IMG/VR virus record: IMGVR_UViG_3300029305_006219
Strand: one strand, 5' to 3'
DNA length: 64,000 nucleotides
DNA from: a virus
The translations under genes and the position numbers were made by a program. The number at the start of each line of letters is the position of its first letter. Within the stretch, counting starts at the first letter, position 1. The notes under the pieces were generated by a model. That model was not told the DNA's origin and did no database searches. It saw only the letters and a program-made list of their open reading frames with translations. Of the stretch, positions 1 to 64,000 are shown piece after piece.

Positions 1-2
1 AA

Positions 3-176
3 GAGTTTGAGAAAGTTCTTTGCCATGAGTTAGTGCATGCGGCAATGTTTGCATATGATATGACTTTGGGTCATGATGAGGAAGAACTTATAGCGGAAAT
101 AATTTCGGTTTTTGGTGAAGAAATTATTGATTTAACTGATATAATGTTTGAACGAATAAGAAGAGGAAGATATTGA
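3..176 (+). CDS. C-terminal fragment of a HEXXH zinc-metallopeptidase-like protein; gene starts upstream of the window
   Basis: Plus-strand frame 3 reads ...EKVLCHELVHAAMFAYD... (HEXXH motif) to TGA at 174-176. This is the only plus-strand gene seen in the window. Confidence 0.4.
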   Translation, partial: EFEKVLCHELVHAAMFAYDMTLGHDEEELIAEIISVFGEEIIDLTDIMFERIRRGRY

Positions 177-196
177 GATATCTTCCTCTTTTTTAC
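159..196. terminator. Bidirectional rho-independent terminator between convergent genes
   Basis: Inverted repeat AGAGGAAGATAT / ATATCTTCCTCT followed by a T-run. It lies between the plus-strand gene and the minus-strand ruvC-like gene. Confidence 0.5.
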
Positions 197-702
197 CACT
201 CTAAAGCAGAGCTATAATCTTTTTCTTTTTTTGGATGTAAATAAGCATGACCAATACAAATTGCGTCTGCAATGTCGTCATTGGTTAAAGATAATCCATA
301 AGCACGGTTTGCAAAGTCTATATCTTTCTATTTTTTCTATTCGCGCTTAGATCCACGTCCATCTTCTATTCCACATACGGAGCGCCAAGAACTAGGATAA
401 ACTAATTCAATTTCTACATTAGGATATTTATCATGAAGCTCGATATGGATTAACGCTTGTAAATACATTAATGCTTTAAATGTATTAGTGTTTTTAGTAT
501 GATCTGGAATAACTTCTTCCATTACAATTTTTTCAATCTTTAACTATTCTACTAATGCTAGTATATTATCAACCATTTTATGGATTCGTTTATATAAATC
601 ATTTGAAGAAGCTGTAATACAAGTCTATCCAATCAACTCTTTGTCTTTAAAAATTGCCACACCTGTTGCTTTAGTTGAGGCATCTAATGCAAGTAAGTAC
701 AT
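193..702 (-). CDS. ruvC: RuvC-like Holliday junction resolvase, read through 4 in-frame TAG codons
   Basis: Joins ORF 337..522 with flanking in-frame segments. N-terminus MYLLALDASTKATGVAIF; C-terminal DDIADAICIGHAYL resembles the RuvC D-A-x-A-x-A-x-x-H motif. TAGs at 337-339, 328-330, 544-546, 625-627. RBS GGAGG upstream of the ATG at 700-702; TAA stop at 193-195. Confidence 0.7.
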
Positions 703-8000: not shown

Positions 8001-11000
8001 TCATTCTTCCATATCCTTTCTTTCATGAACTAGTTCCATATCGCGTCCGTTATTAAGCAATGATATTTTATAGATTTGGTGCGTCGGGGTATGCTTATAG
8101 GTCTTGGTTACGAACTGGTCACCACGTTTATAGCCAGTTAAAAGTAGCATCGTTCCTCTCTTAAACCAGCCCTTTTCTGTTATCTTCTTAGATCCATCAT
8201 CCTGAAGCTCCGACAATTGTTTCTTGTACTGCGCATAATATTCCTTCGTAAACTTAACAGTGACAACACCGCTTGGAGTTAATAGAGTAATAGATGCTTT
8301 ATTATCATTTTTTGCGATTACAGTTCCGATAATCTTATGCGTTTTCCAAATCGGAATCTGTTGACCATTGCGCTTGAAATAGTAGTCAACCTCGGGCTCT
8401 TCTGGAAGCGCAAAGAAGTTTGAAATACCATACTTATAGGTGTCAACATTTGCTAACTCATGCTCGTGATAATAGAAACATAGAGACTCCATTTCCCAAG
8501 AGGATAAAGATCCTTGAGCATATTTATTCCAAGTATCCATAAAGAGCTGTGTATTGAGTTGGCGCAAAACCTCACTCTGATTCTCCTTCAACCAATCACG
8601 GGCGCCATCCATCTGTTTCTGATAAATACCGTCCCAAGTCTTTTGTTGAATACAAGTTAATCCATTGATAACTTCAAGTTTTTCAATATCAAAGTGACCT
8701 TTATAGAATTTATCACAAGGTTCATCAAATACAAAGTATTTTCCAACTTTTGTATTTGCTTTGAGATATTTATTAAACTCAAAAACTCTGCGCTCAAAGT
8801 CAAGTGACTCTGGAACCAGACCACGCTGAATAAGTCCGTTAAAGTTCTGCAAAGTTAGTTTACTTTTAGGCTCACAAGCTTTTGATAAATAATATGCCAT
8901 AGCTACGAAACGAGGATGGATATTTAACTCTTTACCCCATTCTGCTTCAAGCTTATCAAAGGCGCCCGCCTTGATAAGAGAAATCATCTGTGTTTTATTA
9001 AGAGGACAGCGCTCCATAAAATCGGCGATATTAGCATACGGTCTGCCGCAAATTATCTGCTCAATAACTTCGCTATTGATTCCGCTTAATGCTTTCATAC
9101 CAAAGAGGATTTGATTATTTTCTACGTCAGGCTTAAAGCTGAATTGAGATTTGTTTATATCAACTAAAGATACATTAATACCAGCGGAAATAATATCTCC
9201 TAAAGCACGAGCAAGTTTTGTATAATCAGTCTGTTTATCTTTTGCCTCTTCATCGTCATCTTCATTGTCATAGCCTTCAAGTGAGCCACTATTAACAATT
9301 AGATTTGCGGTATTCCAATAAATTGGATTCCATCTAGTCGCAGCATACGCAGTCTGGAATCCTATAAATGAATAGGCTAGAGCATGGATTATGGAGAAGG
9401 AATAACCCATCTGGGGTCCAATTCCATGTTTCCATACATAGTGACCCATGCATGGAGAGCTAGCCTGATCAAGAACTTGTTGTTGTAAAGCAGGAATCTT
9501 AGACATTTGCTTTTTTCCGACAATTTTTCTGGCGGCGTTGGCATCTGCAAGGCTAAACCCACAAATCTTGGGATCCATCAACATCTGCATCATCTGCTCC
9601 TGAGAAGGTGGAACACCGTGAGACTTTAAGAAGTAAGGTTTTAATACCTCTTGCTCCTCTTTGGTTAAGCCAAATTCATCCATTTCTTTATACCAAAGGT
9701 TAATATTATTCTTAAAACGAACATACTTTTCCATTGGGGTTTCCTGACCTTTTTCATTTGTCATAAGGCGCATTAAACCATTGGCGTCCGCCAGCTCAAG
9801 GATACTTGATGGACGAATCTTTTTAGCCGCTTGGGCGCCCACATCTGAGTCAAACTGGAAAAGACCTAATACTGCAACATCTTGAATAGGTTTCCAATAC
9901 TTTTCTTCTTCAATAGGAAGAACATTCGGATGAAAATATTTATCATATATCTGGCGCAAGGTCATATCTGACTCTAATTCGCCAGTCTCTTGCAGCATAT
10001 TAATAGTCTCTACGAGTTTGTCTTGTACTTCTGTTACAAGGAAGTCATATTTCACCATTCCAAGTGCCTCACAAGTGTGAAGATCAAATTGCGTTATAAC
10101 TTCACCTTTTGGAGTTCTCATGAATGCGCCAAACTCATATGGATCTTCATCAAATAAAATTACTCCAGATGCGTGAGATGAGCGCTTGTTCTTAAGACCT
10201 TCAATCGAAGTCATAATTTCCAAAAGTCCAGGATAATGATTTACTTCTCGAACGAATGACGCTACTGGTTTACGATCTTTATCTGGGTTACCATTAACAA
10301 CATCATTGATACTCCATAAGAAACCACGCTCTTGCGGAACAAGAGAAGTAAGATACTGCGCCATATCAACATCAATACCGTCCGGATATTCTTCACTACG
10401 ATAGCCGCGGCAAGCGGTCAATATTGCGCTCTTTGTAGTTTCCGTACCAAAAGTTGCAATAAGAGTACAACCTAAGTTTGCGCGAGACAGTTCATCAATA
10501 TCTGTATTAAACTTGGCTCCACGTTCTTCTTTAATTTTCTTAAGAATATAGGGTCTTTTACTTGGACAAAGGTCTAAGTCGATATCACCGAGTTCTACTC
10601 TTTCCTTATTGAGGTAGCGCCAGAAGGGAAGATCCCACTCTATAGGATCAAGCTGGGTAACTCCAAGGAGATAATGGTTTAGGCCTGAGCAGCTTGAACC
10701 ACGACCGGCGCCAACCATAGAACCGCATTCCCAAAAGAGATCAATATAATGCTGAAGAGTGACAGGATATGCAAACATATTTGTTTCCAATTTTTCACTA
10801 ATCGTTCTCTTGATATCTGCTTCTTCTTCAAGTCTGTCGAGATATTGAGAAAATTCAACGATTAAATCATAACTGGTAGCTTTCTTTTTATTTGCCAAAC
10901 TTTCAAAACATTGATTTACCCAATATCGTTCCACCTTATTTTCAGAATTAAATAGACTATTCAAAGTAGGGTAATGTGTACCGATAAAATATTCATCGTC

Positions 11001-25700: not shown

Positions 25701-26690
25701 TACCCTCTTTTTCAAGATATTTTAATGGGAATAGACTATATCTTCATCCATTTTAAACGGTGGATGTCATGCACTTCGATTTAAAGGATTTTCACCTACT
25801 TTTATATTATTATAAAAGCCCTACTCCTGTTGAGGAAATTTCATCCTCCAGTGGGATAGTCGTTGAACCTTCTCCTATTCGGAGCTTGGCTGCTGATTGC
25901 CCAATTTAATCAATTTTTAACATTCGCACTTAGATTTCTTTCATTCTTATGCTGTAGTTTGATTAACTCTAAGGGGTTTCCAGCAATTCACATGATTTGC
26001 TTAATGGATTGCTCCATTAAGGGCCTTATATATTTCATATTTTCGTCTCAACCGAGAGGCCTCGGTTGAATGTTCATAAATTTTATTTAAAATTTGTACA
26101 ACTGCAGCGCCTTCTTTATGAATTTGATAAGCAGAGGTTCCACAAGGACTTACTTTATTATCAAACTCTAAAATTTCTAGCATTTGTTTTGTGCAGATCT
26201 CAGTTTGACTGACAAAACTTAAACTAGGAATATTGTTTCTATCTTCTCTAATGTGAATACTACCATCTGCATCTAGCAATCCTCTTGCAAAATCATAAAT
26301 ATATTCATTAGGAATGTTTTCAAGGGGAATACTAAAAATAGAGGTTTTTGCAGGTACTATATTATATTGTGCTAAATAACGTTTTAACTCTGCCGAGTTT
26401 ATAGATACAGTTAAAGCATGACATCCAGTGTTATTAGTACGCTCTGTAATGGGCGCATTAGATTCAAAGAATGCTTGTAAATTTTCAAGCTGCTCTCTAT
26501 CTATATCTTTTAACTCAACTCTTACTCTGGCTTCATTTTTAGCTACATTTCCATCTCCAGCTAAAAATCCAAGCCAATAATATTTTTCATGAGGGTCTAT
26601 TTTAATGTTTGTTAAATTTAAAGGATATTTTCTCAAAAAACTTTCAACTCCTTCTTTAAGAGAGCGAAAATATGAAATAAAAATGTTAAG
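25700..26690 (-). mobile_element. Group I intron interrupting the AAA_24 ATPase gene and carrying a LAGLIDADG endonuclease ORF
   Basis: Minus-strand core elements: P-like AATTGCTGG (about 25950), Q-like AATCAGCAGCC (about 25890), R GTTCAACGACTA (25849-25860), S AAGATATAGTCT (25726-25737). Upstream exon ORF ends at a TAA at 26686. Boundaries are approximate. Confidence 0.6.
26001..26636 (-). CDS. Double-motif LAGLIDADG homing endonuclease (intron-encoded)
   Basis: LGFLAGDGNV and ARGLLDADGSI motifs. TTG start with an AAGGAG RBS. Confidence 0.75.
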   Translation of the reverse strand: MRKYPLNLTNIKIDPHEKYYWLGFLAGDGNVAKNEARVRVELKDIDREQLENLQAFFESNAPITERTNNTGCHALTVSINSAELKRYLAQYNIVPAKTSIFSIPLENIPNEYIYDFARGLLDADGSIHIREDRNNIPSLSFVSQTEICTKQMLEILEFDNKVSPCGTSAYQIHKEGAAVVQILNKIYEHSTEASRLRRKYEIYKALNGAIH

Positions 26691-41062: not shown

Positions 41063-41137
41063 TGGCAGGGGAGGTAGGAATCGAACCTACGTCTGTGGTT
41101 TTAGAGACCACGGTCTTGACCTTTCGACGACTCCCCA
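41063..41137 (-). tRNA. Amber suppressor tRNA, tRNA-Gln-like, anticodon CUA (reads UAG)
   Basis: Minus-strand sequence UGGGGAGUCGUCGAAAGGUCAAGACC GUGGU CUCUAAA ACCAC AGAC GUAGGUUCGAUUCCUAC CUCCCCU G CCA. The anticodon stem is 5 bp Watson-Crick and the loop is CUCUAAA. U1.U72, G2-C71, G3-C70 and the G73 discriminator follow the bacterial tRNA-Gln pattern. It closely parallels the tRNA-Gln(UUG) at 62245-62316. Confidence 0.75.
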
Positions 41138-46143: not shown

Positions 46144-47580
46144 TTATTCTTCAGTAACCTCTTGAGCCTCTTCCATATCAGGTGCGGCGGCCTCGGCTTT
46201 GACCAGCCCTTCTAGACACTTGAAACTAAAGTTCTTGTGTTTGTATGCGGCGAACTTAGGTCTATTGATTATACGCACAACTACTCCTTCACGGACATGG
46301 GTCTTTCCAATAGGATCGGCGCCATCATAAAATTCTTCTGCAATCTTCATTACAAGGTCACCAAGAGTCATTCCCTCTTTAAGAAGATAATCGTGATCAT
46401 AGCCATCGGGTGCTACAAAATGCGCGCGATCAGCGCTTAATATAACTTTTCCAAATACAGGCACAGTCTTAACCCCCATCTGCTCGCAACGGTAACGCAT
46501 GAGGTCAGGAGTGTACTCGACTATCTCACCATCCTCGTTAGTCATTGTCATACGGTAAACATAGATGTCTGACTGAGGGATGCTATAATCTATAGTGGGC
46601 ATGACGTTAGGTTCATCATATTCAGTAACTTTAAAACCAAAAGGCTCGCATCCATAGGAGAAACGAGTAATCTCGCCATACTGCTTGATGAATTCCTTAT
46701 CATTAAGCTTCTTGTTAGAAGCATCACCCATGATAGGAGCACCATTGGTTGTGAATCCTACTACTTCATAGTAGACCGTTTCTCCTTTATTCAGCTTATC
46801 CTCGAATATTTTAGAGTGTTGTTCACGAAACTCGTTACTTCCGTAAAAACCGCCATCATAATTTTCAAGAACTACGCGGCGGGTGCCAGAAACATAACCC
46901 CAATCATAAATAGGAGTGCCTTCCTTGCGAGTAAGCTTCTTCCAAAAGCTGCGCTTATATCCTTTAAGAGTAGGTAGACATCCTGTTCTTTGACTAGTTC
47001 CATGCATCTTAAGCGTGATCTCAATTTCATCACCTACTTTAAAAGCGCCGAGATTATATGCCAACTGCTCAGTATCCGCATGCTCTTTGAAGAGAGGTGC
47101 AGTAGGAACTTTCTTTTTACGAGTTCTATTGCCTTCAGTTACAGTACCGCGGCGAATGTTGGTACGAGGTATATACTTGCAGCAGATTTCGTGTCCGTTA
47201 ACTAGACCATCAATTATATCTCCAGCTTTAAGATGAGCGGCGGCCGCCCCATCCTCAAAGCAATAGTCAAGCGCTGATAGAGGAAGGAAAAGACCGTCAC
47301 TCTTCTCACTGCGCAGACGAATTGCGGTTACATTTCTTTTATCTGGGTCCATGTATCCACCAATCTGGTTTCCTGCATCATCTTTCTTACGGAGTAGGTT
47401 ATTATGCTCAGCAAATTCTACCGATACCTGACCATCAGTGGGTAGATAAATACCCACTTGACCTTCAAAATAGCTAGTGGATACGCATACGGTATTACCA
47501 AAGCAATCTCCAAGAAGCAGTCTATCTGCATTAGGATGCTTACGCACATTTTTCAGTGTAGTTATATATGCTTTATACAT
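46144..47580 (-). CDS. ATP-dependent RNA ligase (Rnl2-like nucleotidyltransferase) with N-terminal tRNA-binding (Myf/CsaA-like OB) domain
   Basis: N-terminal KHPNADRLLLGDCFGNTVCV resembles the tRNA-binding OB-fold motif. LKMHGTSQRTG matches the KxHGT(N/S) motif I of Rnl2-type ligases. 478 aa. Confidence 0.6.
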   Translation of the reverse strand: MYKAYITTLKNVRKHPNADRLLLGDCFGNTVCVSTSYFEGQVGIYLPTDGQVSVEFAEHNNLLRKKDDAGNQIGGYMDPDKRNVTAIRLRSEKSDGLFLPLSALDYCFEDGAAAAHLKAGDIIDGLVNGHEICCKYIPRTNIRRGTVTEGNRTRKKKVPTAPLFKEHADTEQLAYNLGAFKVGDEIEITLKMHGTSQRTGCLPTLKGYKRSFWKKLTRKEGTPIYDWGYVSGTRRVVLENYDGGFYGSNEFREQHSKIFEDKLNKGETVYYEVVGFTTNGAPIMGDASNKKLNDKEFIKQYGEITRFSYGCEPFGFKVTEYDEPNVMPTIDYSIPQSDIYVYRMTMTNEDGEIVEYTPDLMRYRCEQMGVKTVPVFGKVILSADRAHFVAPDGYDHDYLLKEGMTLGDLVMKIAEEFYDGADPIGKTHVREGVVVRIINRPKFAAYKHKNFSFKCLEGLVKAEAAAPDMEEAQEVTEE

Positions 47581-47595
47581 TTTTCTTTATCTCCT

Positions 47596-48531
47596 TTAAT
47601 TCTCTAAACATTCTTTTAACATACTAGCGCGCATAGGATTACGCAGTTTTCTCATAGCTTTTTCTTCAATCTGACGTATGCGCTCTTTTGAAAGACCATA
47701 AACCTTGCCAACGTCTTCCAAAGTCTGCGCTTTTTGATTGTTTAATCCATATCTACGAATTACAATATCAGCTTCTCGTTCATCAAGAGTAGATAATACT
47801 GTCTTTATCTTTTGAGAAACTTCTGCTTTGAATATATCTTCAATGGGCGACTCTGCGCCGTCGTCTGCTATAAGATCTCCAATAGTAGCATCATCTTCGT
47901 CGTTCAAAGTCTGATCAATAGAAACAGGCTCTTTTACAATATTTTGAAGTTCGCGCACCTTATTAATATCAAGCTTCATATAGGCGGCAAGTTCTGCGGC
48001 AGTAGGCTCGCGCTTAAATTCTTGATATAACTCACTATTCGCTCTACCAAGTTTATTCAAAGCTTCGATAATGTGATGCGGCACGCGAATTGTACGAGAC
48101 TGCTCTACCAACATTCTTGAAATAGACTGTTTAATCCAATAGGTGGCATAGGTAGAAAACTTATATCCCATTGTATAATCCCATTTATCAACTGCGCGTA
48201 TCAATCCGATATTACCTTCTTGAATCAAATCAAGAAAAGGGATTTTAGTTTTATTAGTATATCGTTTTGATATGCTAATAACCAAACGCAGATTAGATTC
48301 AATAAGTTTATTTCGCGCCGATAAATCACCTTGAGTAATCTTTGCGCCGAGCTCTTGTTCTTCTTCTGCTGTCAACAACGGAATATGTCTTATAGAGTTG
48401 ATATAAGCTCTTGTGGCATCGGGCAAATAATCACTTGTTTCAAACTCTAAATCAATTGTTTCTTCTTCAATCATTACATTACTTTTTGTCATACTATTTT
48501 CTCTCTTTCTCATTTTAATTTTCTTTAGCAT
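47596..48531 (-). CDS. Sigma-70 family RNA polymerase sigma factor
   Basis: Region 2 DLIQEGNIGLIRAVDKWD and region 4 GLSKERIRQIEEKAMRKLR. Confidence 0.8.
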   Translation of the reverse strand: MLKKIKMRKRENSMTKSNVMIEEETIDLEFETSDYLPDATRAYINSIRHIPLLTAEEEQELGAKITQGDLSARNKLIESNLRLVISISKRYTNKTKIPFLDLIQEGNIGLIRAVDKWDYTMGYKFSTYATYWIKQSISRMLVEQSRTIRVPHHIIEALNKLGRANSELYQEFKREPTAAELAAYMKLDINKVRELQNIVKEPVSIDQTLNDEDDATIGDLIADDGAESPIEDIFKAEVSQKIKTVLSTLDEREADIVIRRYGLNNQKAQTLEDVGKVYGLSKERIRQIEEKAMRKLRNPMRASMLKECLEN

Positions 48532-58795: not shown

Positions 58796-59221
58796 TTATT
58801 CTACTTCGTGTTTATAATTAAGTGTTTTGAATTGGCGGCGATCGATGCATTTAAGCTTCTCGCTTTCATTGATATTTTCTAGCAACAACTCACAATTAGC
58901 GCCAGTTGCACTAAGATTACGTATAGACTCCATCATTTCTGATAAAGAAACACCGTATGATTTTGCTGCTGTTGCTATTTTCTGCAGAGCATTGCTCATA
59001 CTACTCTGTGCTGTTTGTAATTGTTCTTCTTTAGTACCCATTCTCACTTCTAACTCCTTCCATTGATGTACACCATCTCCTATTTTTACTGTGACGATTC
59101 CTTGATCAGAATCAATTGCGCAACCCACTTCGCCTTTCATTAATATTGGATTATTTTCATTCCAAGCCTATGGAGTATCATTTTTCATAATAAGGCGCGT
59201 ACTTAGATTATAAGTTGCCAT
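58796..59221 (-). CDS. Tail-fiber N-terminal-domain-like protein, 1 in-frame TAG
   Basis: MATYNLSTRLIMKNDTP[TAG]AWNENNPILMKGEVGCAIDSDQGIVTVKIGDGVHQWKEL continues into ORF 58796..59140. TAG at 59168-70. RBS AAAGGAG. Confidence 0.5.
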
Positions 59222-59588
59222 TTTCTATCTCCTTTGCTATCTCAATATAAGTTCCTTTTACACCTTGACTTTTGACCTGCGCAATACCAAATTTTTCCAT
59301 TTTTTGCAATAGTGAAGTCCATACAGGGCGCGAAAGGCTTGTTTTTTGAATCATCTTTACAATTGAGATATTACCAGATAAACCAATTGTTTCTCTAATT
59401 GATTGAAAAGCCAATTTTTCATTATCTGTTAATGATTTGTAAAAATCTTCTACTAAAATTAGCTGATCAGCGCCAATGACCGCTTCTAAGAAATCCATTA
59501 GGCGCCCAAGATCTCCATCAAGTCTAAATTCACGAATATCTGCTTCATATTCTTTAGCTATTGCTAATAATTTATCATAAGTAATCAT
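59208..59588 (-). CDS. Hypothetical protein
   Basis: 126-aa ORF. Confidence 0.3.
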   Translation of the reverse strand: MITYDKLLAIAKEYEADIREFRLDGDLGRLMDFLEAVIGADQLILVEDFYKSLTDNEKLAFQSIRETIGLSGNISIVKMIQKTSLSRPVWTSLLQKMEKFGIAQVKSQGVKGTYIEIAKEIENGNL

Positions 59589-59748
59589 ATTTTTATTTTC
59601 CTCTACATATTCTTTTAATAAATTATAATATAAATTTTACAGTTTTTCAACGAAAAAATCTAAAACCACTTTTAGATTCTATAAGTCGACCCTCTGCGTT
59701 CCGAACAGATATATAAAATAAAAAGCCACCTTCATAGGTGACTCTGGT

Positions 59749-59823
59749 TGGAGGCGCGCCCGCGACTCGAACGCGGAATCAAGGCTTTGCAGGCCTGCGC
59801 CTTAACCATTTGGCTAGCGCGCC
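59749..59823 (-). tRNA. tRNA-Cys (GCA)
   Basis: Cloverleaf with anticodon loop CUGCAAA, U73 discriminator, and CCA encoded. Confidence 0.8.
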
Positions 59824-59913
59824 ATTTTATCAAAGCCCCCGCGACAACGTACATCGCGGGGGTAAGCAGAAAGGAAGGGTAGAAAAATGATAGGCTGTAG
59901 GAGCCAGCCTATA

Positions 59914-59988
59914 TGGAGCAAGTACTGGGAGTTGAACCCAGATCTTCTGCTTGGAAGGCAGAAGTAATAGCCGTTATACGACACCTGC
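59914..59988 (-). tRNA. tRNA-Gly (UCC)
   Basis: Anticodon stem UCUGC/GCAGA, loop CUUCCAA, U73, CCA encoded. Confidence 0.8.
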
Positions 59989-59989
59989 A

Positions 59990-61100
59990 GAGGGCGCTTA
60001 AGATTGTCAATTGAATTTCCTGTGGAGTAGTTAATTGTATCCACACTTTTCCCAACCCTACCAAGTACTATCTCTTGCGAGACCGTGCAAACGGCTTCTT
60101 TTGACAGAGCGCTGTGTTTGGGGCAGAGGCTCTCTTAAGCATTATTATAGATTAACTTGATATTTGCGCAGTGATCACCTGATTCCTGCTCCTATTGATC
60201 TTTTCCGAAGGTGCGACCTTCGCACAGTTCTGCATATCAAGTGAAAATGGGAAGAAACGAAGACCTTTCCCGTAGTCCTCGTTTAGCGACACTAACGGAT
60301 TTCCAAGGGCGGAATGTGTCAGTTACCCGAGCTTATGACCCAGCCACAGAGGTTTGTCAGAGTATGCTCTCCGCAACACTTTTGCATCTTCAAATGTCGA
60401 CGACTTACAGGCGTGCGCCGCCTTGTCTCAGAAAGGAGGTGAGACTATAATTGAAGAAATTAGTCGCTTTTAAGGCTCACAGCGTCGCCACGAGAAGGCT
60501 TTCTTCTTGACGCCATATGGAGCACCTGATTGGATTTGGACCAATGTGGACAGAGTCTCGCGCTTACAAGGCGCGTGCAATCGACCGCTATGCGACAGGT
60601 GCATATATTAAAGAGGTGACAGCTTTAGGTCAGCCAACCGCTCATTGTTTTCTTTTGGGCGTGGTATTTGCTTACCATCCTCAATTCGAGTAAATAACCG
60701 TTTCATCTTTCAATCTACATCTGGCTTAGACATTTTTAATTGGTCTACCAGAACCTCGCCACATCCTCGGCGCCAATCGCACCCTACTTATTTCACCGTA
60801 GCTACTCTTCGGGTGGACGAAATCCACGATTTTCTCGGCATTTGATTTCAGTTTATTTTCGTGGGCGCTCTCTCAAGCCTACTCTGGATTATCCAGCAGT
60901 ATTCGCCTCAAAATACTCAATGAAATCAAGGTTATTCACTTATAGATAAACTTTTCATCAATATTAAGGATATTATAACACTGGCATTTATCAATCCCTG
61001 TTATAAAAACCCTGACACTTTTGTGCTCGTGCTGCGAGGTCAGCTCGTGGTTAGCACTCTTATAATCCTGAATGCTCCAGAAGTCATCTACATTTGCTCA
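59990..61100. ncRNA. GC-rich non-coding block between tRNAs; candidate large structured RNA (GOLLD/ROOL-like?)
   Basis: About 1.1 kb with no ORF over 80 aa in any frame even with TAG treated as sense. GC content is clearly above the flanking genes, and there are many local hairpins. No family could be assigned from sequence alone. Confidence 0.25.
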
Positions 61101-61119
61101 AGGCTTGGAAGTAGCTCCA

Positions 61120-61195
61120 TGGTACCGACTCTGGGATTCGAACCCAGAAATTTTAGTTCCTAAGACTAACGCCTATGCCATTCGGCTAAGTCGGC
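61120..61195 (-). tRNA. Class-I tRNA with anticodon UAG (would read CUA/CUN); identity undetermined
   Basis: GCCGACU UA GCCGAAUGGCAUAGGCG UUAGU CUUAGGA ACUAA AAUUU CUGGGUUCGAAUCCCAG AGUCGGU A CCA. Short variable loop, A73, G1.U72. Confidence 0.6.
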
Positions 61196-61512
61196 ATAAA
61201 GGTTGTTGATTTTGCGGTAACAACCAACCCGCTGAAGGGAGGAAAACCATGAAAAGTCTCGTACTTGGAGGGAACTGAGAATTACGATATCTCGACATCA
61301 ACCTTAACAGGGTTGCGCTCTGCCTCTGAGCTAAGCTCCCATATTGCGCCTGTGAGGTTTACTTCAGTAGCGCCAACTGAAGGTGACTTACTTCGCTTCT
61401 TTATATACCGTTTTCCGCTATTGCTCCATACCTCGTTACCATATCGCGGTGAACCGCACCTTGATCTGAGTCGGGAGTAGTTTAGTCACTAATCCGTGTT
61501 AACGGTTATATT

Positions 61513-62163
61513 TTAATCAGCCTACCATTTCCAAATGAAACCATAAGCAGATTTTCTAATTCCATTTGCACACTCTCGAATGTGCGTTGAAATACCTTTT
61601 ACTTTCACTGAAGATGTTAAATTATTATCTATTAAATACTGAGAAGCATCTGTTAAAGAAGAAAAACTTTGAATATATTCATTAGTTTTTTTATCAAACA
61701 TTTTTACAGCTTTGCTAAACAACTCTTTATTAATTGTTTGAGCAGTTTTTAATACGCCTCCTCGTTGATGAATAACAATATATACGCTATCTACTGAAAT
61801 ATTTAATTTTTTTGCCACTTCTGTTGCATTTTGCAAAACTTCATAAGTGGAATAGATTAAATCATAATCTAAATAACGTTTTCCATCTCCTCCTAAAGTA
61901 GCATTATAACCATTTTTAAATGATTGTTTTTTCTCAATCCAAAAGATTTCTCTTTCAGAAGGATTATCTGTTTCTTCAAGCAATTCTATATGAAAATGTT
62001 CAATTCCATATTTGTTTATTGCTCGATATAAAGGACGATCCTTGCATCTTTCCTTTTGATAATCACTACAATGCTCTTTCCAACGTTTTTCTATAGACTT
62101 TTCTGTTTTACCAATGTATATTTTACCATTTATATCATTGGTAATTTGATAAATGTATGCCAT
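61513..62163 (-). CDS. GIY-YIG homing endonuclease (HE6) in the tRNA cluster, 1 in-frame TAG near the C-terminus
   Basis: MAYIYQITNDINGKIYIGKT...R..H...NGYNATLGGDG...; C-terminal CANGIRKSAYGFIWKW[TAG]AI then TAA. RBS AAAGGAG. Confidence 0.75.
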
Positions 62164-62244
62164 ATTTAAATAGCTCCTTTTTATACTTATTATCAACTTT
62201 TAGCTTAACCCATCGCACACCACGTGGAGGTAGTTGATTAAGTG

Positions 62245-62316
62245 CGACCTGGGGTGGCTGGATTTGAACCAGCGGGTGTCAGAGTCAAAGTCTGATGCCT
62301 TGCCACTTGGCTACAC
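62245..62316 (-). tRNA. tRNA-Gln (UUG)
   Basis: UGGGGUG...anticodon loop CUUUGAC...GCUGGUUCAAAUCCAGC CACCCCA G. U1-A72 and G73. CCA is not encoded. Confidence 0.8.
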
Positions 62317-62561
62317 CCCAATAATATCTTAATTACATTAACTAATAGGAGTGATTTGCACTATTCCAAAGGCGATTACTCAACCTTCCTCCTTTAATCT
62401 TGTACAAGATTTGTGAACAACCTAAGTTACCGTTTCACTACGGAGTTAATGTTATTACGATTAGCGACCCCTTTCGGGCAATTTTGAATCGAGAATTTGT
62501 TGATGGAAACTCAGGTCAGGAGTTTATATTGCATCGCTTTATTTCTTACATATATATTATA

Positions 62562-63003
62562 TCATAAATTTTTTAGAAAATCAATTAATCGATAATTTTC
62601 TACCAAATTTATCCCTTTAGTTTGATTATTTTTTGGAGGATCTTGTCTAAAAGTAATTACTTTTTTAGTACCAATTTCTTCAATTGGCAGAATAAGAATT
62701 TCATTCCATTCTACGATATAAAAACAAAAATAATCTATGTCATTCTCGTAAGTGCTATAATGTTTATTGGTAGTATGGTTTGTACTGCTTGCACAAGGAC
62801 AGGCAATAGAATTATTTTCAGTAATTTGTTGATTACAATACTTTACTTGAATACGATTTAATTTTCCATTAAACTCTGCTATCAAATCATAACGAGCATT
62901 ATCTCCAAAAGGGATTGCTACCTAAATGTTATTTTTAACAAATTCAGCAAGTACAACTGCCTCACCAATATTGCCTTTATCTTTACTATTCATATTACTC
63001 CTT
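62562..63003 (-). CDS. PD-(D/E)xK (Hjc/endonuclease-like) nuclease, 1 in-frame TAG
   Basis: MNSKDKGNIGEAVVLAEFVKNNI[TAG]VAIPFGDNARYDLIAEFNGKLNRIQVKY continues into ORF 62562..62885. TAG at 62932-34. RBS AGAAGGAG. It is immediately adjacent to the interrupted tRNA-Lys. Confidence 0.45.
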
Positions 63004-63007
63004 CTTA

Positions 63008-63161
63008 TGGTGAGCCAAGCGAGATTCGAACTCGCGACCCCGTGATTAATGGTGCTTGAGGTTAGATTCGAACTAACAACCTAAAGCCGACTAAGCCCCA
63101 GACTTTACCAATTAAACATACTCAAACAAGTCACGTGCTCTTCCATCTGAGCTACTGGCTC
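63008..63161 (-). tRNA. tRNA-Lys (UUU) interrupted by a 78-nt insertion in the anticodon loop
   Basis: Exon parts GAGCCAG UA GCUC AGAUGGAA GAGC A CGUGA CUU | 78-nt insert | UUAA UCACG GGGUC GCGAGUUCGAAUCUCGC UUGGCUC A CCA. After removal of the insert the sequence closely resembles E. coli tRNA-Lys and the loop reads CUUUUAA. Confidence 0.6.
63050..63127 (-). other. tRNA-like insertion element (acceptor/T-arm minihelix with encoded CCA) inside the tRNA-Lys anticodon loop
   Basis: GUUUGAG...GUUAG UUCGAAU CUAAC CUCAAGC A CCA. The 7-bp acceptor pairing and T-arm are perfect. No canonical anticodon arm could be folded. Confidence 0.45.
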
Positions 63162-63169
63162 ATATAATT

Positions 63170-64000
63170 ATTTACTTAGTTAGCTTTTTGAATAGCTCTA
63201 TATTTTCGCTTGAGTTTATTGATTATATTTCCATTAGCGGCATCGCGCTAAAGAATACTAATACGATTAAGTATTGCAAGTTCTCTATTTATCATTTTGC
63301 TTTATTTCCTTTCTTATCTTTATTACATAAATATTATATCATATTTTTTAATAAAAATCAATGAAAACCTTTGGAGTTTGCTTTTGCCTAATGGTGGTTA
63401 GGACAAAAGCTCTCTGCAACTCATTTTTCTTTGCTACGAGTAAACACAATAGATTGATAGGTTTTTACTAAGCTACCTTCAAACTTAATGGTGGAGAATA
63501 TGAGTAACGATCTCATCTGAACTTCTGCTTGCAAAGCAGACGACCACTCCATGCAGTCCCATTCCCCATAGGAAAGAGAGGGAGAGTTTTTATATCCAAC
63601 AAGAGAATCACTCTCCAAACTCTGATGTTTTACGAGGCGCCGAGTAATGCTTGTTGGCAGCATCAAGGCGTTGATTTAAAATGGCAGAAAATGTCGGTGC
63701 TGCCCCGCTACTCCGCATCCCAAATGCGGTGTGTTACTGTTACACTACATTCTCTATATTCCAGCTTTTAGATGCGGGAAGCTGGGCCCGCGCCTTTCAT
63801 AGCCTTGTTGGATAAACCTGCGCTATTACTAAGCTATCTTTATAAATCTCGCACTTCATCTTGGAGGCGAAACTCCAGCGGATGTTTGGCCCACCGCTGC
63901 CTTTCGGATATAAGTCTCACCGAGTATAACCAGCACTGTTTATATAGCGTCTGCCGCCTCGCTCTCTACTCTCTCTGTTGATTAGGTGAGAGGAATATCC
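63170..64000. ncRNA. GC-rich non-coding block at the window end; candidate structured RNA
   Basis: No convincing ORF, high GC relative to the phage genes, and contiguous with the tRNA cluster. ORFs 63421..63666 and 63529..63981 look spurious. Confidence 0.2.

Follow-up and report, generated by a model that had tools for sequence, protein, structure and literature searches.

What fills the long gaps between the transfer RNA (tRNA) genes at the end of a 64,000-nucleotide stretch of phage DNA, IMG/VR record IMGVR_UViG_3300029305_006219 (hereafter the window)? The first-pass annotation had drawn four G+C-rich blocks without open reading frames (ORFs) between positions 59990 and 64000 and had taken them for candidate large structured noncoding RNAs of the GOLLD and ROOL sort. 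It appears that the gaps hold discrete, conserved, folded RNA modules. The reading that we favour, with modest confidence, is that these modules represent new families of tRNA-punctuated RNAs, analogous to ROOL and GOLLD, which act as free RNAs. They lie in the promoter-distal part (59722-64000) of a minus-strand tRNA operon of ~10 kb, and the phage, which is TAG-recoded and about 125-135 kb in size, comes from ruminant-gut metagenomes. Every feature in 59700-64000 is on the minus strand, with promoters and one terminator.

Subtraction of the annotated features leaves five modules: A (59989-60517), B (60603-61119), C (61341-61521), D (62322-62555) and E (63755-64000). The boundaries drawn at first were wrong, having missed four tRNAs (Thr, Asn, Ala and Pro-like), two ribozymes resembling that of hepatitis delta virus (HDV) and a promoter region. 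The block at 59990-61100 contains tRNA-Thr (60518-60602), that at 61200-61510 contains tRNA-Asn (61266-61340), and that at 63170-64000 contains tRNA-Ala (63489-63567) as well as a weak tRNA-Pro-like gene (63686-63754). Nor is this last block uniformly G+C-rich, since 63170-63488 is AT-rich (G+C 0.27-0.32) with a promoter-like site. A G+C content above the window mean of 0.36 is indeed found in A (0.47), B (0.41), C (0.44) and E (0.48), but not in D (0.34). As had been claimed, the stretches named at first hold no credible ORF on the minus strand under the standard or TAG-sense code, nor do they under the TGA-sense code; no run free of stops exceeds 56 codons in A or 53 in B (standard code or TAG as sense).

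The structure of these modules was addressed by comparison with relatives, which were fetched through a 126-amino-acid ORF just downstream of the operon (59208-59588; 202 homologues). They comprise 3 IMG/VR contigs, about 30 further contigs and one found by DNA pattern, L036 (such labels denote related contigs throughout); the longest are 120-136 kb. Their samples are presumably ruminant or goat gut metagenomes, to judge from the study names in the sample identifiers. All modules of the window are kept in the related arrays, at 70-97% identity. After identical copies were collapsed, 10 distinct homologues of A and 13 of B remained.

Block A is an element of ~465 nucleotides (nt) with multiple domains and about 16 helices in the RNAalifold consensus. 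The 10 A sequences yield 85 pairs in 18 helices when P1 and P3 of an adjoining ribozyme (see below) are included. In these pairs, 95.1% of the alignment cells are paired, compared with 35-42% in controls whose 3' partners were slid by 1-3 columns, and 29 pairs are changed on both sides, compared with 2-5 in these controls. None of 500 column shuffles reached the observed value by any measure. Whole hairpins have been swapped while the fold was kept; in one of them, AGAGC...GCUCU gives way to GUGAAUUA...UAAUUCAC, the CCCAAAC loop between the arms being invariant. When covarying stacks were sought independently, a pseudoknot (GGUAG/CUACU) inside a hairpin loop emerged as well, and the conserved hairpin CUC-GCAA-GAG carries a GNRA tetraloop. 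In every homologue, tRNA-Gly(UCC) follows A at its 3' end without a gap. Covariation is thus strong and A is a bona fide structured RNA; that it is a functional one is very probable.

Block E (~250 nt, of which roughly the first 10-35 fall beyond the window end) directly adjoins the tRNA-Pro-like gene at that gene's 5' end. RNAalifold predicts 37 pairs, and 98.2% of the cells are paired, against 25-42% after sliding. Nine pairs are doubly changed, against 0-1 in the slid controls, and again none of 500 shuffles reached the observed value. A search of the region with Rfam returned no match for E. Given its clear covariation, E is likely to be a functional structured RNA.

Block B is the most sequence-conserved part of the array. 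Its core (60603-60950) occupies ~350 nt of a 517-nt stretch. The layout consists of a 5' domain closed by AGUAAAUAACC/GGUUAUUUACU, a variable linker and then a 3' segment ending in ...GCGGUUGGCUGACCUAAAGC, flush with tRNA-Thr. Invariant runs, such as GGUUCUGG.AGACC and CAGAUGUAG, extend through 12-13 sequences. The closing helix and several hairpins fit all sequences (94.9% paired). By eye, the helix GAAAUC/GAUUUC covaries, being replaced by GGGUCC/GGA(A)CCC in L036 and by GCAAUC/GAUUGU in L031. Beside the RNAalifold model, two hand-refined alternatives were counted, a pseudoknot (CCACGA/UCGUGG with GAAAU/AUUUC) and a hairpin (GUGGA/UCCAC); neither is preferable. The structure proposed for B is therefore plausible but unproven, its covariation being weak, and there is a fair likelihood that B is a functional RNA. 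In L009, L010, L023 and L002 (the last more divergent) a complete tRNA gene is nested in the variable linker of B; the window copy has none.

The two remaining modules are small and structured. The conserved core of C (~115 nt) has 30 pairs, 6 of them compensated, among five sequences. Since C precedes tRNA-Asn in the window and follows it in L003, it behaves as a movable cassette. D is conserved and folded only in its first ~100 nt, on the promoter-proximal side (62455-62555), where a closing helix (GCGAU/GUCGC) and a covarying hairpin are accompanied by a long invariant single-stranded tract.

The company that these modules keep in related phages bears out the context proposed at first, since genuine ROOL and GOLLD RNAs occur in the same array. 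Eight related arrays carry ROOL, scoring 166-195 bits, at the following positions:

L002, 8877-9491
L009, 8168-8790
L010, 8340-8971
L020, 8309-8927
L023, 8429-9046
L024, 2807-3433
L031, 8080-8672
L036, 708-1269, minus strand

In the ROOL-bearing arrays, B always lies just 5' of ROOL, either directly or with a tRNA nested in its linker (four arrays). L036 also carries the 5' part of a GOLLD RNA (1-261, minus strand; 47 bits, E 3e-11), cut by the contig end and with a tRNA-like stretch in its linker. The order of elements is B, tRNA-Thr, ribozyme plus A and tRNA-Gly in the window, B, ROOL, tRNA-Thr and ribozyme plus A in L023 and L031, and B, ROOL, tRNA-Gly, about 350 nt and GOLLD in L036. It appears that the large RNAs are interchangeable in the same operon slots, which strengthens the functional analogy with ROOL and GOLLD. 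Because the modules share a tRNA array with these two RNAs, they look like further members of that group. The occurrence of ROOL and GOLLD near phage tRNA islands is itself documented (PMC5737381, PMC12286853).

How the modules are set between tRNAs can be followed from the layout of the window, in which tRNA genes were called by ARAGORN and Rfam together. All features are on the minus strand.

59722-59745, minus: intrinsic-terminator-like hairpin with a T run, after tRNA-Cys, at the end of the tRNA operon
59749-59823, minus: tRNA-Cys(GCA), the last operon gene (ARAGORN, Rfam)
59824-59913, minus: spacer S3, conserved, with two GC-rich hairpins (comparison with relatives)
59914-59988, minus: tRNA-Gly(UCC) (ARAGORN, Rfam)
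59989-60452, minus: block A (comparison with relatives)
60453-60514, minus: putative minimal HDV-like (theta-type) ribozyme, Thr copy (own motif scan; weak CPEB3 match)
60518-60602, minus: tRNA-Thr(UGU), CCA encoded (ARAGORN, Rfam)
60603-61119, minus: block B, core 60603-60950 (homologues in 13 distinct arrays)
61120-61195, minus: tRNA-Leu(UAG) (ARAGORN, Rfam)
61266-61340, minus: tRNA-Asn(GUU) (ARAGORN)
61341-61521, minus: block C (comparison with relatives)
61522-62163, minus: GIY-YIG/NUMOD1 (SegE-like) homing-endonuclease ORF (Pfam PF01541, 1e-11; PF19835; PF07453)
62192-62248, minus: putative minimal HDV-like (theta-type) ribozyme, Gln copy (Rfam HDV-F-prausnitzii; own motif scan)
62249-62321, minus: tRNA-Gln(UUG), without encoded CCA (ARAGORN, Rfam)
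62322-62555, minus: block D, promoter-proximal leader (comparison with relatives)
62556-62584, minus: promoter-like site TTGATT-17-TATAAT with upstream TG (sequence)
62562-62993, minus: PD-(D/E)XK (PDDEXK_5) homing-endonuclease-like ORF, 143 codons (translation; PF11645 on the near-identical L006 gene)
63011-63163, minus: tRNA-Lys(UUU) gene split by a 78-nt tRNA-like insert at 63050-63127 (Rfam, ARAGORN, alignment)
63333-63361, minus: promoter-like site TTGATT-17-TATAAT with upstream TG, inside a ~65-nt AT-rich repeat
63489-63567, minus: tRNA-Ala(UGC) (ARAGORN)
63568-63685, minus: spacer S1, conserved (blastn, 80-89% identity to 9 relatives)
63686-63754, minus: weak non-canonical tRNA, anticodon UGG (Pro) by eye (Rfam tRNA, 35.7 bits)
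63755-64000, minus: block E (conserved in at least 8 distinct relatives)

The Pro-like gene has an aberrant T arm and was missed by ARAGORN; tRNA-Pro(tgg) occupies the same slot in relatives. The tRNA-Ala gene is non-canonical as well, with the T-loop AUCGUUA. Recoding of the phage, with TAG read as sense, is indicated by a suppressor tRNA(CUA) at 41063-41137 (minus strand; ARAGORN) together with the single in-frame TAG of the PD-(D/E)XK ORF (62923-62925).

The ~65-nt AT-rich repeat around TTGATT-17-(TG)TATAAT (63300-63367 and 62540-62588 in the window, both minus strand) is present in 5-10 copies per 20-kb related locus, many of them in L001-L003. Probably this repeat serves the phage as a promoter cassette of its own.

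The 5' end of A is marked by one of the two predicted ribozymes. A scan of our own for the HDV-like nested double pseudoknot detected exactly two strong sites in the window, 62248-62192 (Gln copy) and 60514-60453 (Thr copy). In the Gln copy, P1 is GUCGCAC/GUGCGAU, P2 AUCAACU/AGUUGAU, P3 ACC/GGU and L3 UCCACGU; the corresponding elements of the Thr copy are GGCGUC/GACGCU, GAAGAAA/UUUCUUC, GCC/GGC and UUCUCGU. Both run in the order P1, P2, P3, L3, P3', P1', P1.1, P4, J4/2 with a C, and P2', with G1 paired to U. For P1.1, the Gln copy offers a good pairing (GG with CC), the window's Thr copy an imperfect one. Rfam scores both below the gathering score: the Gln copy matches the HDV-F-prausnitzii model at 37 bits (gathering score 44; E 2e-4) and the Thr copy matches the CPEB3 (HDV-like) model weakly, at 15-20 bits (gathering score 35). 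Two further flags of the scan, at 63434 and 61521, were discarded as AT-rich or lacking the CNCG signature in L3. G1 of the Gln copy (62248) directly adjoins the discriminator base of tRNA-Gln, and G1 of the Thr copy (60514) lies 3 nt past the CCA of tRNA-Thr. Both predicted cleavage sites thus fall within the 5 nt on either side of a tRNA 3' end that served as a criterion in PMC10879173.

Theta ribozymes are minimal HDV-like ribozymes located at phage tRNA 3' ends, in TAG-recoded gut phages enriched for RNA-ligase genes (Kienbeck et al. 2024, PMC10879173). The copies in the window share with them the nested P1-P2-P3-L3-P1.1-P4 order, the G1-U wobble and the C in J4/2. Further likenesses are cleavage sites 0 and 3 nt from a tRNA 3' end, a tRNA-Gln without encoded CCA, and a phage that is TAG-recoded, comes from the gut and encodes a (weak) RNA ligase. 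By architecture and position, the two are putative new members of this known kind. Unlike theta ribozymes, however, the Thr-associated copy goes with the 5' end of A and not with the tRNA.

Comparison of the arrays makes this last point. Among the relatives, 9 of 13 ribozyme matches are tRNA-adjacent. The element after tRNA-Gln is also found in L010, L020 and L030 with different P1 sequences (the variants are GUCGCAC, GUCACAC, GUCUCGC and GUCGCAU). The Thr copy shows compensatory changes in P1 (GGCGUC/GACGCU versus GGCAUC/GAUGCU) and P3 (ACC/GGU versus GCC/GGC), and it stands at the 5' end of A in 8 of the 10 distinct homologues. Since it precedes A even in L020 and L031, where it is ~160 nt away from tRNA-Thr, it is linked to A and not to the tRNA. 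The likely job of this predicted ribozyme is to make the 5' end of A RNA, which suggests a second use of theta-type ribozymes, namely at the 5' end of a large noncoding RNA. In L020 (9036-9194) and L031 (8774-8933), the interval between tRNA-Thr and A's ribozyme is itself a ~160-nt module with a long closing helix. The two versions have almost no sequence similarity (one 14-nt match), and the architecture that they share was recognised by eye.

A weak RNA-ligase-like ORF (46144-47580, minus strand; PF09414, 22 bits, below the cut-off) lies in the window beside a phage sigma-70 factor (47596-48531, minus strand). The relatives carry Rnl1 or RNA_ligase genes together with a KTI12/AAA_33 kinase and a Metallophos (phosphoesterase) gene. 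These ligase, kinase and Metallophos genes together make up a set for healing and sealing RNA ends, as would suit tRNA ends cut by ribozymes.

From the sequence, we infer the following course of transcription, processing and possible action in trans. Phage promoters with the form TTGATT-17-TATAAT would drive joint transcription of the modules and the tRNAs. RNase P, in cutting at the abutting tRNA, would free the 3' end of each module, and 3' processing of the upstream tRNA would provide its 5' end. For A, the 5' end would arise instead by self-cleavage of the theta-type ribozyme, which would stay attached to it. Once released, the modules may act as free, stable, structured RNAs during infection, as has been proposed for ROOL and GOLLD. 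A comparable device is known from eukaryotic nuclei, where the 3' end of the long noncoding RNA MALAT1 is set by an RNase P cut at the abutting tRNA-like structure, mascRNA. The phage RNAs likewise would have 3' ends that abut tRNAs; unlike mascRNA, these are real tRNA genes of a phage operon, and their processing is a prediction.

Several observations weigh against the favoured reading. Single-sequence folding energies are unremarkable (z -1.1 for A and -2.3 for B), and the many stable hairpins remarked upon at first are unexceptional by this measure; the evidence for structure comes from the comparison with relatives, not from folding energy. The opposite strand of A folds almost equally well, with 72 pairs, 21 compensated, and -49.5 versus -52.1 kcal/mol. 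This near tie makes reverse-strand RNAalifold indecisive as a guide to the strand, which is assigned because of the tRNA orientation, the ribozyme, the flush junctions and an excess of G-U pairs on A's tRNA strand (118 G-U against 12 A-C, a partly circular count). The covariation check that had been proposed gave a positive result for A and E, whereas B has only 7 doubly changed pairs, a number equalled by one slid control, because so little of B varies. Finally, the homologues all come from one phage clade (2 IMG/VR contigs, 1 in the metagenome scan and 0 in 185,579 genomes), and the number of independent substitutions is therefore modest. Indeed, scans of IMG/VR with six motifs, as exact and degenerate DNA patterns, recovered the same 2 contigs every time, and one metagenome scan by DNA pattern added a single contig, L036. 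An 18-base motif of block A gave 13 exact matches in the 185,579 genomes, all by chance, none with an nhmmer match to the A or B profiles. In GenBank phages, blastn matched only the tRNAs and the GIY-YIG gene.

An alternative is that the modules are only cis-acting spacers, that is, folded insulators that stop adjacent pre-tRNAs from misfolding, devices that set the order in which RNase P, RNase Z and the ribozymes act, or shields of the long precursor against host RNases, with no role once excised. All modules abut a tRNA on their 3' side, they have been moved about between tRNAs in the manner of cassettes (the two placements of C around tRNA-Asn being an example), and the ribozyme is physically coupled to A. 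Such features would all suit a spacer. However, many tRNAs of the same arrays lie only 1-90 nt apart with no module between them, which indicates that tRNA maturation needs none, and an insulator would have no need of anything nearly as elaborate as a 465-nt RNA that has about 16 helices, pseudoknots and invariant loops. Moreover, ROOL and GOLLD, which occupy the same slots, are known as autonomous RNAs (PMC12286853). We consider a purely spacing role unlikely, and slightly favour action in trans, as for ROOL and GOLLD.

A different possibility, that A and B are highly divergent ROOL or GOLLD RNAs that the Rfam models fail to recognise, is very improbable. The genomic context is common to all of them, some B homologues enclose a linker tRNA as some GOLLD RNAs do (PMC12286853), and the GUCAAAAGA motif of A faintly recalls the 5' hairpin loop UUCAAAAGA of GOLLD. 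Against this, Rfam 15 was searched at the gathering score and at E<=10 with the window, the 4.6-kb region 59400-64000, and A and B each alone. Even with the laxest filters, neither A alone nor B alone matched ROOL, GOLLD or any other family at E<=10, and 59400-64000 returned only tRNAs and the sub-threshold HDV-like matches. Membership of ROOL (RF03087; gathering score 99.1 bits) is thus rejected with a model that scores the sister loci above its threshold, and membership of GOLLD (RF02032; gathering score 150 bits) with one that does find the GOLLD RNA of L036. RNase P RNA, tmRNA and group I and II introns, also considered at first, match no block at E<=10, although the same search finds a group I intron elsewhere in the window (25713-26068, minus strand; 78 bits), which has large insertions in its peripheral loops. 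Furthermore, L020, L023 and L031 each carry A and B in addition to ROOL, so that these are three distinct elements and not allelic versions of one.

The differences in form point the same way. ROOL, which was discovered in metagenomes of cow rumen, is a large (about 580 nt), ORF-free, multi-helix RNA from the tRNA islands of phages and prophages. The window modules resemble it in sitting in a phage tRNA island, and in the sister phages ROOL is presumably excised from the same polycistronic transcript. Unlike ROOL, A (~465 nt) and the core of B (~350 nt) have helices of their own and no match to it in sequence or structure. ROOL forms oligomeric cages (PMC12286853). GOLLD likewise is a large phage RNA beside tRNAs, and some of its members enclose a tRNA in a variable linker, as do four B homologues though not the window copy, but its universally conserved region is 3' (PMC12286853), whereas the conserved domain of B lies 5' of the linker. 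As judged from these comparisons, A, B and E are new families within the known category of large phage tRNA-island RNAs; they match nothing in Rfam 15, and we found no description of them in the literature.

It might also be argued that the conservation reflects a function at the DNA level, such as a replication origin, a packaging site, or sites of homing-endonuclease recognition or recombination. GIY-YIG and PD-(D/E)XK homing-endonuclease ORFs are interspersed in the arrays, and the helices are nearly strand-symmetric. Compensatory changes in about 30 pairs are, however, unexpected for protein-binding DNA sites, and the G-U excess on the tRNA strand, the predicted ribozyme at the 5' end of A and the flush tRNA at its 3' end all argue for RNA. 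In addition, the blocks are present in arrays both with and without adjacent endonuclease genes. A role as DNA is thus highly unlikely. The last idea, raised by the first-pass annotation as degraded host DNA, is that the blocks are decayed captured host genes (ribosomal RNA, coding sequence or tRNA pseudogenes) or coding sequence in an unusual code; it is hardly credible, for although G+C is above that of the phage genes and tRNA genes in these arrays do suffer insertions, the blocks have no similarity to anything else (only the tRNAs and GIY-YIG gene in GenBank phages, only chance matches to the A motif in 185,579 genomes, no ribosomal RNA, tRNA or other Rfam match), contain stops in every frame whether the code is standard, TAG-sense or TGA-sense (a protein-coding reading is rejected for the TAA-only code as well), and are conserved with covariation across at least 10 phages.

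The tRNA genes of these arrays show peculiarities of their own. In the window, tRNA-Lys(UUU) is interrupted after anticodon-loop nucleotide 34 by the 78-nt insert, which itself mimics a tRNA: it is cloverleaf-like, has an acceptor stem and the T-loop TUCGAAU, and ends in ACCA. Rfam reports a 151-nt composite match (63011-63161), with 50.1 bits for the outer and 31.4 bits for the inner tRNA. Without the insert, the gene reads as a perfect 76-nt tRNA-Lys comparable to the uninterrupted ones of relatives, as judged by alignment and by ARAGORN on the outer, inner and spliced sequences. One idea is that RNase P and an enzyme that makes 3' ends would excise the insert and that the phage RNA ligase would join the halves. 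We found no description of tRNA-like inserts in the anticodon loops of phage tRNAs in the literature. The same design is seen in tRNA-Leu(UAA) of relatives (L001 1188-1310, L023 1356-1478, L013 4114-4302 and L006 ~2390-2520), where the inserts measure 49 nt (minihelix-like) or 103 nt (tRNA-like, and itself with a 26-nt insert), start with G right after U34 and end in GCACCA. In L001, some 665 nt containing a PD-(D/E)XK-like ORF apparently separate the two parts of tRNA-Thr (8324-8364 and ~9030-9077), the break falling after the anticodon loop; Rfam detected no group I intron there. ARAGORN also called, in related arrays, tRNAs with four-base anticodons (tgga, ggat) and one with the anticodon tca (L006 2026-2116, L013 3392-3482, L003 2878-2952 and L001 4312-4387). 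The tca tRNA may be a reader of TGA, and the odd-anticodon calls may be a prediction artefact or reflect unusual decoding.

If the modules are taken as free RNAs, these tRNA arrays can tentatively be viewed as RNA-gene islands with an interchangeable kit composed of ROOL, GOLLD and at least three undescribed classes (A, B and E), a picture to which we give slightly less than even weight. During infection, members of such a kit could possibly join in acting on tRNA metabolism or the translation apparatus. Large RNAs with complex folds are rare in bacteria and phages. In size and structural complexity, ROOL is exceeded only by ribosomal RNAs, group II introns and GOLLD (PMC5737381). The roles of ROOL and GOLLD are still unsolved despite recent structures from cryogenic electron microscopy. 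Structured RNAs unrelated to them in the same operon slots, sometimes beside ROOL or GOLLD, provide new candidates for structural work. Theta-type ribozymes, which trim tRNA 3' ends, would gain a second use, the making of a 5' end for a large noncoding RNA. The restriction to one phage clade tempers the novelty of these RNAs, and their co-occurrence with ROOL and GOLLD raises it. Which of these RNAs an array holds (B always; ROOL, A and GOLLD as options) gives a matrix of presence and absence that can be related to the biology of the phages. If this reading is true, the clade would lend itself naturally to comparative work on the role of ornate phage RNAs, because ROOL and GOLLD occur together with the new RNAs and trade defined slots with them.

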